Source: Parcubacteria group bacterium Gr01-1014_8 (GTDB taxonomy: Bacteria; Patescibacteriota; Minisyncoccia; Phycocordibacterales; UBA2100). Taken from it: a stretch of DNA of 64,000 nucleotides. Below, one piece after another: positions 14,687 through 18,358 of this stretch. The first letter of the stretch is position 1. Every line of letters starts with the position of its first letter. Both the position numbers and the translations under genes were made by a program. The DNA is taken from NCBI GenBank assembly GCA_007376385.1, contig VMGC01000001.1:64001-128000 (forward strand), written 5' to 3'. Below the pieces are notes generated by a model. It had not been told where the DNA came from. It made no database searches and saw only the letters and a list, made by a program, of their open reading frames with translations.

Positions 14687-15421
14687 ATGGGGTTGTTGGA
14701 AACACGCAAACTCACAAAATCATTCGGTGGAGCTCAAGCGGTGGATCATGTTGACCTCTCGTTCGAAGCGGGAAAGATAACTGCGCTTATTGGCCCCAAC
14801 GGGTCGGGAAAAACTACGCTTATCCATACGATAACCGGCATGATGCCGATGGGTGGTGGCACGGTCGTTATCAGTGATTCAATCGAACTTTCAAAAATAG
14901 CTGCTCAGGACGTAGCATCCTACGGAATCACGCGAACATTCCAGAATTCACGGCTCATCCAGCAAATGAGCGTGCTCGATAATGTGCTGTTTGTTCTTAC
15001 TGAACGAAATTTTTTCGGTTCTTTATTTGAAAGACACGGAACATTTCATCTGGACGCCGCCGAGGATATATTGAAAAAGATCGGACTGTGGGAAAAACGT
15101 GACGAAAAAGCGGAAAATTTGTCGTACGGCCAGCGCAAGCTACTTGAAGTTGCGCGAGCCGTATTGATGAAGGCAAATGTATATTTTTTTGACGAGCCGT
15201 TCGCAGGATTATTCCCTGAAATGCGTAAAACTATTTCAGATATCATGCGCAAATTGAAAAATGCCGGCGCTGCAGTTGTACTTGTCGAACATGACATGGA
15301 ACTCGTGCGCGAACTCGCCGACCACTGTTACGTCCTCGATAGCGGCAAAGTTATTGCCGAGGGAACACCGGAACAGGTTCTCAAGCAAGCTAATGTCGTT
15401 GAGGCGTATTTGGGTAAATGA
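14687..15421 (+). CDS. livG: Branched-chain amino acid ABC transporter ATP-binding protein (LivG-like)
   Basis: 244 aa; Walker A GPNGSGKTT, ABC signature LSYGQRKLLEVARA, Walker B VYFFDEP. Confidence 0.9.
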   Translation: MGLLETRKLTKSFGGAQAVDHVDLSFEAGKITALIGPNGSGKTTLIHTITGMMPMGGGTVVISDSIELSKIAAQDVASYGITRTFQNSRLIQQMSVLDNVLFVLTERNFFGSLFERHGTFHLDAAEDILKKIGLWEKRDEKAENLSYGQRKLLEVARAVLMKANVYFFDEPFAGLFPEMRKTISDIMRKLKNAGAAVVLVEHDMELVRELADHCYVLDSGKVIAEGTPEQVLKQANVVEAYLGK

Positions 15422-15422
15422 T

Positions 15423-16142
15423 ATGAAAGACACATTGCTTCAGCTCAAAGATGCATATGTGCAGTACGGCGGAGTAACTGCTCTCGCTGATGCGACTGTG
15501 CGCATAGATGATGGGGAAATTGCGGCACTGATGGGACCGAACGGGGCAGGAAAATCGACTGTTTTAAAGGCTTTATTCGGAATCGCACCGATGACACATG
15601 GAAAAGTTTTGTGGCACGAGCAAGAACTCAAACCTGTGCCGTATGAGATGGCAGCACGCGGAATTGCATATGTTCCACAGGGAAGACAAGTATTTAAAAA
15701 CCTCACTGTCTATGAAAATCTAGAGCTCGGCGGATATGCCCTGCCGAATAGAAAAGACACAAAGAAAAATATCGAGGCGGTATTGCATATTTTTCCTGCC
15801 ATTGAAGAAAAACTCAATACAAAAGCAGGATTACTCTCCGGAGGCCAGCAGCAAATGCTCACTATCGCGCGTGGGCTTGTATCTGACCCGAAAGTACTTC
15901 TGCTCGATGAGCCATCACTTGGACTTGCACCAAAAATTGTGAAGGACGTGTTCGAGAAAATCAAAGAAATAAACGCTATTCGGAAAATTGCGATTGTCGT
16001 CGTGGAGCACAGCGTGAAATCCGTCCTTTCCATCGCGCATCGTGCGTATATTCTTTCAAGAGGAAAGATATTCGCAGAAAAAAGCGCGCAAGAACTGATG
16101 ACAAGTGATACGCTTTCAAAAGCATTCCTAGGAACAAGCTAA
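15423..16142 (+). CDS. livF: Branched-chain amino acid ABC transporter ATP-binding protein (LivF-like)
   Basis: Start moved to ATG 15423 (MKDTLLQL...), 1 nt after the livG stop. Walker [10 protein letters not shown], signature [15 protein letters not shown], Walker B LLLDEPS. Confidence 0.9.
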
Positions 16143-18358
16143 CGACGTCGTTTACCGTGGAAGGCCTTATGAACTTCTCTAAGGTGCTTATCAGTGACGT
16201 GCGTGTACACTTGCGTAGTTGCAATATTTGCGTGGCCCAAAAGTGCCTGAACGGAACGCAAGTCGGCACCATTCTCCAGCAAGTCTGTTGCGAAAGAGTT
16301 GTGAGAAATGAAACCATCGGTAATAAAGTTGTGCGTTGGTTCTACTGTAAAGTCGTAGACAATTGATGGTTCGCTTAGATTCTCAATACGTTTAACGCGT
16401 AACCAGCGAATCGAATCCAGAGAATGTACAAGTCGCAAATGTTCTACGCACAAGTGCTTTACGTTGTTTTCATCGCACGCTTTAATTAAGGACTGTAATA
16501 ACGTTGGCGTTGTGCATATGCGCGTATATCTTTTAAGATATCGAATACCATACTCCTCTCCCAATAGGTGCATAAAACCCTTCTTTTCCAACAAAACTGG
16601 GTACAGAGTCCGCACTATATTTTGTGTTGGCAATGCAATATCGAGGCGCATCCACTTTTTCTTGGACTGTAAATTTTGCTTAAATGTTGGAATTAGTTCC
16701 ACAAATCGATTCTGACTTGGGGGATATGTAACATACAACGTATATATCGTATGTTGAATCGTACGTCCCTGTGGTAATTTAACCATTCTTGTTCTTGGTA
16801 AAAGGATACTCTCAATCGAGAGTCTTAGTAACAACATTTGCACATCCTTTAAGAGTTCTTTACTTGCTGAAAACATTTTTATCGCGCCATTATTTCCTTC
16901 AGCATCGTAATATCCAGCCAAAAATGAACGAATATTTTCTTCTGATTCTTGAAAGAGTTGCGGAGGGACACGTCTGTATTTTGAACGCTGCGTTATACCA
17001 AATGATCGTACTTTTTTAAGAAAATCGACATTGTAAATATTGAGCGCAAAACCATGACCATTTGACAAAGCAACTATTGTTCCGTACCGACCAGTCACAT
17101 GATGCACAATCTCGTTGTACAAATCGATATGTCGCCTGTCTTTGTCGTTCAAGATTATTCCGCGCCTTGCCTCGCTCAAGGTCCCATCGCCGAGAATATA
17201 GCCGAGTAGGCGCCAGAAGTCGGTTGATTCGGTTTCTGCGTGCTTTTCAAGATGCATCTCAATACCGCGCACCCCGGCAACATAATCACCGATCTTCAGT
17301 TCCTGCACCTGAATAGCAGTAATTCCGTTTTCTGTAACTGTGAAAAAACTATGGTACGGAGTACATAGTATTTCCCGTCCATCCGCCCATAGTGAGATCA
17401 TATGGTCGGTTTTATGTGTTTCTTTGTGCGTAATCGCTGCACGGATAAAGCGATTATTGAACCAGTCGAAGCCAAGTACTTTTTTTGTGTCATTGGCGGT
17501 AAATAATTTTTCTGCTGTAGTCAGAGAAGGATTGCCCATGACTCTCGTTTCAGGATGAAGACAATGGCGAATGACGTGAGGAGTCACTTTGCGTGTGATG
17601 CCAGCCCTGATCGCGTACTGTTTCACTATCCGTTCAACAGAGCGGGGGGTGAGCGTCTGAAGTTTTTTGCCAGCTCGCCCATAGCTGACAAACAATGCGC
17701 CCTCCACATCACCGCGCTTCTCCAAATACTCTTTCACGGCTTTCTTTGCAGTAGGAGAGAGAAATACAACGCGGACTTTATCGCCCTTGCCGCGTATTGA
17801 AAATTCATCTCGGGAGAGATCGAGATCTCTATCGAGCGAACAGAGTTCGGAAACACGAAGACCAGTTGAAAAAAATAATTCAAGAATCGCACGGTCACGA
17901 AGTGCCGTCAGCGAATTACCGCTCGGACCTTTCATGAGCCGCTCAAGTTCCGCAGCCGTGATCAAGTCAAGATCCCGCCCACCGACTTTCGCAAGTTCAA
18001 TACGCTCGGGGGAGAGCGATTCAATGTTCTGTTTCCGCATGTATTTCAAAAACGAGCGCAGAGCGATGAGATAGTAATTCTGCGTCTTTTTTTTCATGTC
18101 ACCAGACACTCCCGGTTGACGATTCAACCACAATCGAAATTCGCGAACCAAAGGCTCAGTGAGTTTCGCGGGAGATGCCACCTTCGTATGAGTGAGGAAA
18201 CGAGTCAGATAGCGGTCGTAATTCTCGACCGTTTTTACGCTCCTTCCTTTTTCTATCTCCAAGTATTCGAGAAATTGCGTCTTCATCTCCTGCAAATCGG
18301 ATGCCATGTGTCGATTATACATCCCATGTCGCACAATATTTTTTTCAACCGCCGGCAT
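16139..18358 (-). CDS. xerC: Tyrosine recombinase XerC/XerD-like, interrupted by an in-frame intein (precursor 739 aa)
   Basis: The N-terminus has Xer core-binding and catalytic regions up to ...KVTPHVIRH. The C-terminus, [34 protein letters not shown]..., completes the R-H-S-F-A-T box and carries the catalytic Tyr. A 422-aa insertion lies between them. Confidence 0.85.
16298..17563 (-). mobile_element. Intein (about 422 aa) with LAGLIDADG homing-endonuclease motifs inside xerC/xerD
   Basis: The insert begins Cys (CLHPETRV, block-A-like) and ends HN, followed by Ser(+1). Two LAGLIDADG-like motifs: [11 protein letters not shown] and [11 protein letters not shown]. The flanks join to give a colinear recombinase. 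Codon boundaries checked on the nucleotide sequence (C266 = 17561-17563, N687 = 16298-16300). Confidence 0.8.

Follow-up and report, generated by a model that had tools for sequence, protein, structure and literature searches.

We analyzed a 64-kb stretch of the genome of Parcubacteria group bacterium Gr01-1014_8 (contig VMGC01000001.1, positions 64,001 to 128,000; hereafter, the window), whose minus strand carries a gene for an Xer-type tyrosine recombinase that is very likely interrupted in its catalytic box by an intein with a LAGLIDADG homing endonuclease. An earlier reading of this DNA from its letters alone (hereafter, the sequence-only reading) had pointed to a minus-strand open reading frame (ORF) of 739 amino acids (aa), which is indeed present at 16139..18358 and open throughout. 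The true start of the precursor gene is probably M18 of this ORF (nucleotide (nt) 18307), because the public copy of the precursor (P0001; 100% identical) has 722 aa, the intein-free orthologues start at the position matching M18, and the spliced gene then amounts to exactly 903 nt, the length also seen in the intein-free alleles. Residue numbers below refer to the 722-aa precursor (300 + 422) starting at M18, with the intein at aa 249–670. In the numbering of the full ORF, the 422-aa insert, which runs from CLHPETRV to GFISHN as previously described, spans aa 266–687 and corresponds exactly to nt 16298..17563; its flanks are ...KVTPHVIRH on the N-terminal side and a Ser on the C-terminal side. 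The features of the gene are as follows:

16139..18307, minus strand: precursor gene, an Xer/XerA-like tyrosine recombinase interrupted by the predicted intein (722 codons plus stop, 83.2 kDa)
17564..18307, minus strand: N-extein, aa 1–248, ending ...TPHVIRH (Pfam Phage_int_SAM_1 and Phage_integrase)
16298..17563, minus strand: predicted class 1 intein, aa 249–670, 422 aa, 48.9 kDa, Cys1...His-Asn then Ser+1 (Pfam and NCBIfam intein models)
17237..17563, minus strand: N-terminal part of the Hint domain, aa 249–357, with block A Cys249 (17561-17563) and block B T316-P-Y-H319 (within 17342-17368)
16688..17236, minus strand: LAGLIDADG homing-endonuclease domain, aa 358–540 (Pfam LAGLIDADG_3; structural matches to PI-PfuI and I-DmoI)
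17177-17209, minus strand: LAGLIDADG motif 1, LLGYILGD374G, with the predicted catalytic Asp374
16892-16924, minus strand: LAGLIDADG motif 2, FLAGYYDAE470G, with the predicted catalytic Glu470
16415..16687, minus strand: helical subdomain of the intein, aa 541–631 (helices 562–629 in the AlphaFold2 model, predicted local distance difference test score (pLDDT) 92–96)
16298..16414, minus strand: C-terminal part of the Hint domain, aa 632–670, with block F VYDFTV... (16319-16360, Asp652) and block G GFISHN (His669-Asn670)
16139..16297, minus strand: C-extein, aa 671–722 plus stop, with Ser671 (+1), His692 (LLGH) and Tyr701 (QVYTH)

The N-extein comprises the SAM-like core-binding domain together with the larger part of the catalytic domain, including Arg151, the GKGxK hairpin (K174/K177), His244 and Arg247. 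Ser671, the first residue of the C-extein, is both the +1 nucleophile of the intein and the native Ser of the RHSFAT box. The placement claimed in the sequence-only reading, namely an intein with a LAGLIDADG endonuclease between the RH and the SFAT of box II, is supported by profile matches, by the predicted fold and by the exact absence of the insert from orthologues. With respect to profiles, the insert scores 74.3 bits with Pfam Intein_splicing (PF14890; cut-off 35.8) and 45.3 bits with LAGLIDADG_3 (PF14528; cut-off 22.5). The NCBIfam model of the intein C-terminus (TIGR01443 intein_Cterm) is matched above its cut-off of 15.6 with 26–28 bits, and that of the N-terminus (TIGR01445 intein_Nterm) weakly, with 19.1 bits and thus under its cut-off of 24.5. 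The insert additionally matches the intein parts of the NCBIfam models for DnaB, RpoA'', ribonucleotide reductase (RNR), IF2, RFC, VMA and GyrA. Both LAGLIDADG-like blocks noticed earlier could be located (nt 17177-17209 and 16892-16924); they form two helices, each ending in an acidic residue, which along with the profile and fold matches is the configuration of a two-motif monomeric LAGLIDADG endonuclease. The lack of blocks A, B, F and G had been put forward as the sign of a mere insertion domain, but block A, block B (T316-x-x-H319), block F and block G (H669-N670) are all present and conserved. The insert thus combines an N-terminal nucleophile, a TxxH motif, blocks F and G with His-Asn and a +1 Ser, a profile score above threshold and precise absence from orthologues, as is typical of class 1 inteins.

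The whole architecture is shared at the same site by at least 120 public proteins with 40–85% identity (271 matches at E ≤ 1e-5), and the length of the intein ranges from 414 to 430 aa across homologues. We assessed residue conservation on an alignment of 117 intein-bearing homologues, to which the counts refer unless stated otherwise. Cys249 is found in all 117 (and in 121/121 in a separate count), H319 of block B, Asp652 of block F and the terminal Asn670 are invariant, and His669 is present in 116. Position 316 is Thr in 86 sequences and Ser in 31, and the +1 position 671 is Ser in 105 and Cys in 12. Within the endonuclease, Asp374 is retained in 116/117, with position 470 being Glu in 109 and Asp in 8. 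The recombinase residues Arg151, Lys174, His244, Arg247, His692 and Tyr701 are likewise invariant, as is H248 at the end of the N-extein. These invariant residues are spread over both exteins and thus point to selection on the joined product, i.e., on splicing. The helical subdomain (aa 541–631) is confidently folded, shows low column conservation in the homologue alignment and has a ratio of nonsynonymous to synonymous substitution (dN/dS) of 0.051; it is possibly an accessory DNA-binding region.

Removal of the insert restores the recombinase: Pfam Phage_integrase, which matches the precursor in two pieces, matches the 300-aa spliced protein as a single stretch (profile positions 3–172 of 172, E 1.6e-43), bearing out the expectation of an uninterrupted catalytic box. 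The intein parts Arg151, Lys174, His244 and Arg247 from His692 and Tyr701, such that the R, K, H-x-x-R, H, Y catalytic set is complete only with the intein removed; the SAM-like core-binding domain is also present. A search with the spliced sequence recovered at least 120 intein-free proteins of about 300 aa, with 80–90% identity among the matches listed; these listed orthologues are nearer to the window exteins than almost all intein-bearing homologues, and those up to 90% identical are exactly 300 aa long. The intein-free xer allele that had been suggested as a check therefore exists and defines the empty site, and the 422 aa, far from aligning colinearly with a domain of ordinary recombinases, are precisely absent from ordinary orthologues. 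At the DNA level, we compared the empty alleles L002–L004, leaving out the closest intein-free allele, P0122. In L003 the DNA is continuous across the site (...CACGTGATACGTCAT/TCGTTCGCAACT..., with the slash marking the insertion point), its empty-site sequence being ACACCACACGTGATACGTCAT/TCGTTCGCAACTGATCTTCTC; the archaeal version of the empty site is CATCCGCATACTTTGAGGCAT/TCTTTTGCGACGCAT. Over 60 CPR (Candidate Phyla Radiation) and 6 archaeal occupied sites, the core of the flanks reads CCN CAY NNN NTN MGN CAY / TCN TTY GCN ACN.

The predicted structure agrees with the profile matches. The precursor, modeled with AlphaFold2 from 117 homologues, reached a mean pLDDT of 85.7, with values above 90 for the intein. 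In Foldseek comparisons of this model with the PDB, the TliVMA intein (7qss; 5.6e-23) and PI-PfuI (1dq3; 4.4e-20) were the best matches, followed by PhoVMA, PI-TkoII (2cw7) and PI-SceI (1ef0); the endonuclease core matched I-DmoI and I-Tsp061I, and the exteins matched XerA, XerD and IntI. By sequence (phmmer), the nearest solved relative is also PI-PfuI (2.8e-11), with TliVMA matched as well. The archaeal TliVMA and PhoVMA inteins (7qss, 7qst), PI-PfuI (an RNR intein, 1dq3), PI-TkoII (2cw7) and the yeast PI-SceI (VMA1) display the same Hint domain split by a two-motif LAGLIDADG endonuclease. The Xer intein matches this group with Foldseek E-values from 5.6e-23 to 8e-10, and shares with TliVMA, PI-PfuI, PI-TkoII and PI-SceI the Cys1, the block B TxxH, the terminal HN and an insertion point within a conserved catalytic motif of a housekeeping host. 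However, its sequence identity to the solved archaeal and yeast inteins is only ~10–20%, and it features the additional helical subdomain at aa 541–631. Further, whereas the solved inteins reside in ATPase, polymerase or RNR hosts of Thermococcales or yeast, the Xer intein resides in a tyrosine recombinase and is found in the CPR and the DPANN archaea.

These features suggest a mechanism that would not depart from that of other class 1 inteins with LAGLIDADG endonucleases. An 83-kDa precursor would be translated, upon which the Hint domain would fold and Cys249 undergo an N–S acyl shift; the resulting thioester would be attacked by Ser671; Asn670, assisted by His669, would then cyclize and release the 49-kDa intein; and an O–N shift would generate a native RH-SF peptide bond, leaving a 34-kDa recombinase free of any scar and with its active site complete. 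The computed masses are 83.2 kDa for the precursor and 34.3 + 48.9 kDa for the products. Since the active site is complete only in the spliced product, recombinase activity would depend on splicing. The released intein would in turn cut intein-free xer alleles, with double-strand-break repair from the intein-bearing copy spreading the element (homing). Movement of the element among CPR bacteria, DPANN XerA proteins and a few other tyrosine recombinases would be favored by its target being an almost invariant catalytic box. Taken together with this predicted splicing and homing, we hold with high confidence that the insert is a canonical class 1 intein with a two-motif LAGLIDADG homing endonuclease, lodged between His248 and Ser671 of the HxxRH/SFAT box of an Xer/XerA-like recombinase in a CPR host of the Parcubacteria/Kaiserbacteria type.

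We then considered how the element is inherited. Among the 150 best representative clusters (50% identity, intein-free query), seven contain intein-bearing alleles, and none shows a mini-intein, i.e., one devoid of the endonuclease, at the RH/S site. Proteins of 420–435 aa were rejected as mini-inteins, their length being due to N-terminal extensions. Likewise, proteins of 650–870 aa that lack the RHC junction were rejected as intein carriers, since they show two LGH motifs, suggesting tandem double recombinases. These proteins (P0325, P0344, P0361, P0364, P0366, P0369, P0378, P0382 and P0385) probably consist of two tandem tyrosine-recombinase units, possibly fused Xer pairs. The intein is patchily distributed, and ranking by extein identity leaves intein-free and intein-bearing alleles interleaved. 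Across 7021 pairs, the identity of the inteins correlates with that of the exteins (r = 0.59, a value reached by 0/500 permutations; Mantel-type); the mean pairwise identity is 0.41 for the inteins versus 0.55 for the exteins, the inteins evolving faster on average. In 177 pairs, nonetheless, similarity is higher for the intein than for the extein (e.g., 0.74 vs. 0.51), and the neighbor-joining (NJ) trees of intein and extein concur on the major CPR groups while misplacing L042, L017 and L045. The low guanine-cytosine (GC) content of the window intein (0.41 vs. 0.49) was rejected as a sign of recent import: the deficit recurs in 58/63 loci with a mean of 7.6 points and tracks the host GC, and being thus systematic it is a property of the family. 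Compared to its closest intein-bearing relative (L087, P0002), the intein has a dN/dS of 0.05–0.06 in every subdomain, with 0.063 for the endonuclease. In the same comparison, synonymous divergence (pS) is 0.59 for the intein and a saturated 0.78–0.86 for the flanking exteins, and the intein copies of the window and L087 therefore appear younger than their host genes. The low dN/dS and the lower synonymous divergence point to a living homing element rather than a relic. One intein copy (L063, 3001-4270) is disrupted by stops or a frameshift immediately ahead of its C-terminal junction and represents either a decaying allele or an assembly error.

Several observations weigh against reading the insert as a spliced and actively homing intein in the cell's own Xer. 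First, within the CPR, intein and extein trees largely agree and the GC of the intein follows that of the host (r = 0.84), and hence much of the transmission is vertical or within clades. Second, in the comparison with L087 the flanking exteins show no tract of co-conversion. Third, the lower GC at third codon positions (GC3) of the intein (0.39 vs. 0.48–0.52) may account for part of its low pS relative to L087, though 0.59 is well under saturation. Fourth, the endonuclease of the window copy could be inactive despite its intact motifs. Fifth, the 52-residue C-extein has a pLDDT below 50 in the precursor model and is not confidently docked with the intein in place, but this low confidence may be a modeling artifact. 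Finally, the role of the window Xer in chromosome-dimer resolution at dif is deduced solely from its family and from the housekeeping genes around it.

The first of these observations also favors an alternative in which the intein splices but its endonuclease no longer homes, the element being kept either vertically, with precise deletion from an active site being rare, or as a conditional-splicing switch that gates Xer. Amelioration of the intein GC to that of the host (r = 0.84) and the general match of intein and extein clades within the CPR (correlation 0.59, 0/500 permutations) are what such vertical retention predicts, while a switch could be read from the placement of the element where splicing would control activity and from a conserved Cys beside block B (LCTPYH). 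A Cys in this position resembles some redox-sensitive inteins. However, if homing had stopped, decay of the endonuclease would be expected, whereas strong purifying selection acts on its acidic residues as well as on the domain as a whole (dN/dS 0.063) and mini-inteins are lacking; moreover, the lower synonymous divergence of the intein relative to the exteins and the discordant pairs indicate transfer. A switch with an indispensable regulatory role is further at odds with closely related intein-free alleles being the majority. We accordingly consider this alternative unlikely and read the data as those of a homing element that would be mostly inherited within clades, repeatedly lost or absent, and occasionally transferred.

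The phyletic distribution of the element was determined by scanning one genome per GTDB species; from the 115 relatives found, 79 loci were retained. In all retained loci with a splice junction, the intein lies at the RH/S of a tyrosine recombinase, the exception being L083, which has another host protein (26% identity). Among the bacterial hosts are Kaiser-, Nomura-, Yanofsky-, Taylor-, Zambryski-, Azam-, Brenner-, Woese-, Gottesman-, Roizman- and Peregrinibacteria, Kazan and Saccharimonadales. The labels Nevskiaceae, Gammaproteobacteria and Pseudomonadales attached to some metagenome-assembled genomes (MAGs; L027, L028, L030, L044, L047 and L069) were distrusted, as their exteins cluster with those of Woesebacteria and Microgenomates. 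DPANN archaea account for six loci, whose exteins are of the XerA type (SFATHLLE). One of these, L019, is genuinely archaeal because it adjoins archaeal uS9, uL13 and L18e genes; a search from it retrieved ~16 archaeal clusters, some of them on contigs of 48–151 kb. The archaeal and CPR inteins are 0.40 identical, equal to the value within the CPR (0.40), whereas their exteins are only 0.32 identical compared to 0.52 within the CPR. The NJ intein tree intersperses the archaeal sequences with the CPR clades, and the long branch on which they sit in the extein tree is missing. This favors a cross-domain transfer of the intein, the alternative being that both sets have reached a shared plateau of divergence.

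Members of the same intein family also occur at the equivalent RH/S of divergent non-Xer tyrosine recombinases, namely P0447 (a Thermoprotei MAG), L061 (2255-3520) and L074 (863-2149), whose C-exteins begin with SRLTNAA, SFAINWIK and SFAIHCIK, respectively. In addition, a 93.9-kb phage-like contig (L084, 4278-6437; IMG/VR UViG_3300025015_000021) codes for a 719-aa intein-bearing Xer-like integrase in the neighborhood of a replication-initiation protein, a DnaB/RecA-like ATPase, a DNA methyltransferase and an HNH protein; the contig could act as a carrier by which the intein spreads. We regard as evenly balanced the broader proposition that a single intein family circulates between CPR and DPANN, both ultra-small episymbionts sharing habitats, by way of the HxxRH/SFAT box, with phage or mobile-element integrases such as that of L084 as possible shuttles, rendering it a marker of exchange and its host a natural "splice-to-activate" recombinase.

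The same site and its surroundings feature further insertions and endonucleases. Two DPANN-type XerA proteins, P0436 (626 aa) and P0438 (621 aa), carry at exactly the same RH/S site a different insert of ~347 aa, beginning with CVTEEVEILT and ending with IFITGN/SFATHLLE. It has no match to the Pfam or NCBIfam intein models, and hhalign comparison with the Xer-intein profile gave a probability of only 37%, in register at CTQEH (block B) and at the LAGLIDADG-like GWILTDGNIS; it probably represents a second and highly divergent family of inteins that lacks the penultimate His. In two DPANN loci, L033 (1092-1574, directly adjacent) and L019 (110-571, ~1.5 kb away with two ORFs between), an ORF coding for an HNH endonuclease precedes xerA on its strand, and P0444 is an XerA fused to a C-terminal HNH domain.

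As to which Xer hosts the intein, the designation of the sequence-only reading, a XerC/XerD recombinase, needs partial revision: the Pfam domains uphold an Xer-type tyrosine recombinase, but it is neither a XerC nor a XerD equivalog, the closest being the single-recombinase XerA type. The spliced protein scores 246 bits with the NCBIfam XerC model (TIGR02224; cut-off 335) and 240 bits with the XerD model (TIGR02225; cut-off 330), reaching neither, and passes that of XerA (NF040815) with 235.1 bits (cut-off 220); the archaeal L050 scores 239 on the XerA model with its intein still included. The spliced extein resembles the XerA proteins of Pyrococcus and Thermoplasma (4a8e, 5hxy) in combining a SAM-like core-binding domain with a catalytic domain bearing R-K-H-R-H-Y. 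Smyshlyaev et al. 2021 (PMC8138268) defined a "Cand" subgroup of Xer for candidate phyla and do not mention inteins; the host here is likewise a candidate-phylum bacterium, and its recombinase likely belongs to this subgroup. No intein features in the described XerA, XerC, XerD, XerH and XerS proteins or in the description of Cand, whereas here the predicted activity awaits splicing.

The gene neighborhood bears on whether the host is the cell's own enzyme. In the window, xer is surrounded by genes for a metA-type HTS, MgsA/RarA, S15 and a branched-chain ABC transporter, and intein-free orthologues lie in the same neighborhood, with S15-FKBP-MgsA-HTS upstream and two ABC ATPase genes downstream. 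The stop codon of xer (minus strand) overlaps by 4 nt (16139-16142) the end of the convergent plus-strand ABC-transporter ATPase ORF 15261-16142, leaving no room for an intergenic terminator between the two. The spacer upstream of xer (38 bp in L002) is not conserved between loci, indicating that dif is not adjacent to the gene. Neither a second tyrosine recombinase nor a second intein was found in the 64-kb window, and a scan of the window with Rfam and for tRNAs revealed four tRNAs only.

With these data we could weigh the possibility that the host is a mobile-element integrase on which the intein rides, rather than the chromosome-dimer resolvase of the cell. The occurrence of the same intein in the Xer-like integrase of the phage-like 94-kb contig L084 and in the divergent non-Xer recombinases L061, L074 and P0447, as well as the missed XerC and XerD equivalog cut-offs, lend it some support. 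Nevertheless, the window gene sits among housekeeping genes, with intein-free orthologues elsewhere having the same neighbors; the window has no other tyrosine recombinase; the XerA equivalog cut-off is passed (235 vs. 220); and there are at least 8000 close orthologues across the CPR at E ≤ 1e-10. This makes an origin of the window gene as a mobile integrase quite improbable, and a cellular Xer remains our preferred host. LAGLIDADG folds have been domesticated elsewhere as DNA-binding modules, but a permanent Hint/LAGLIDADG-derived DNA-binding domain of 422 aa retained in the mature recombinase is hardly tenable: despite the presence of WhiA among the structural matches (8dy9_I) and the folding of the insert as an independent domain in the AlphaFold2 model, the residues that matter only for splicing are conserved (Cys1, the terminal Asn, the block B His and the block F Asp are invariant, with the penultimate His and a nucleophilic +1 residue in 116–117/117), the insert separates the catalytic pentad from the Tyr nucleophile, and orthologues that are colinear to the residue function without it.

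Inteins are catalogued by their host protein and insertion site. The view of the sequence-only reading that Xer is not a usual intein host holds for the intein surveys and the Xer literature that we searched. No intein in Xer or any other tyrosine recombinase was found in the intein surveys or Xer reviews searched, though an entry could be listed in the supplementary tables of Novikova 2016, and the literature searched likewise yielded no study of inteins in CPR or DPANN. The closest parallels are the RecA inteins of mycobacteria and the RadA inteins of Pyrococcus, which also interrupt a DNA-recombination enzyme in its active site. As predicted for Xer, such hosts require splicing to become active, and splicing may serve to control them (Novikova 2016, PMC4760082; Topilina 2015, PMC4513877). 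However, RecA and RadA are RecA-fold ATPases, whereas Xer is a site-specific tyrosine recombinase of another fold and chemistry, which is absent from the intein surveys searched. The pairing of intein and Xer is latent in databases: automatic annotation at JGI names some homologues "site-specific recombinase XerD/intein/homing endonuclease", while at NCBI such precursors are concealed under the labels "tyrosine-type recombinase/integrase" or, in the case of fragments, "LAGLIDADG family homing endonuclease". Host protein, site of insertion and taxonomic range of the intein are new to the searched literature.

With textbook biochemistry to be expected, the surprise is moderate, the host and the apparent CPR–DPANN distribution being of interest to specialists on inteins and on Xer. 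Tyrosine (Xer) recombinases constitute a host class that is new to the intein surveys and Xer reviews searched, with the insertion site one residue past the catalytic Arg of box II. The element offers a natural splicing-dependent tyrosine recombinase, a design that engineered split-intein recombinases imitate, together with a family of LAGLIDADG enzymes aimed at a conserved recombinase motif. Further, with the similarity of its inteins across domains equaling that within the CPR, it could serve to trace gene flow among CPR and DPANN.

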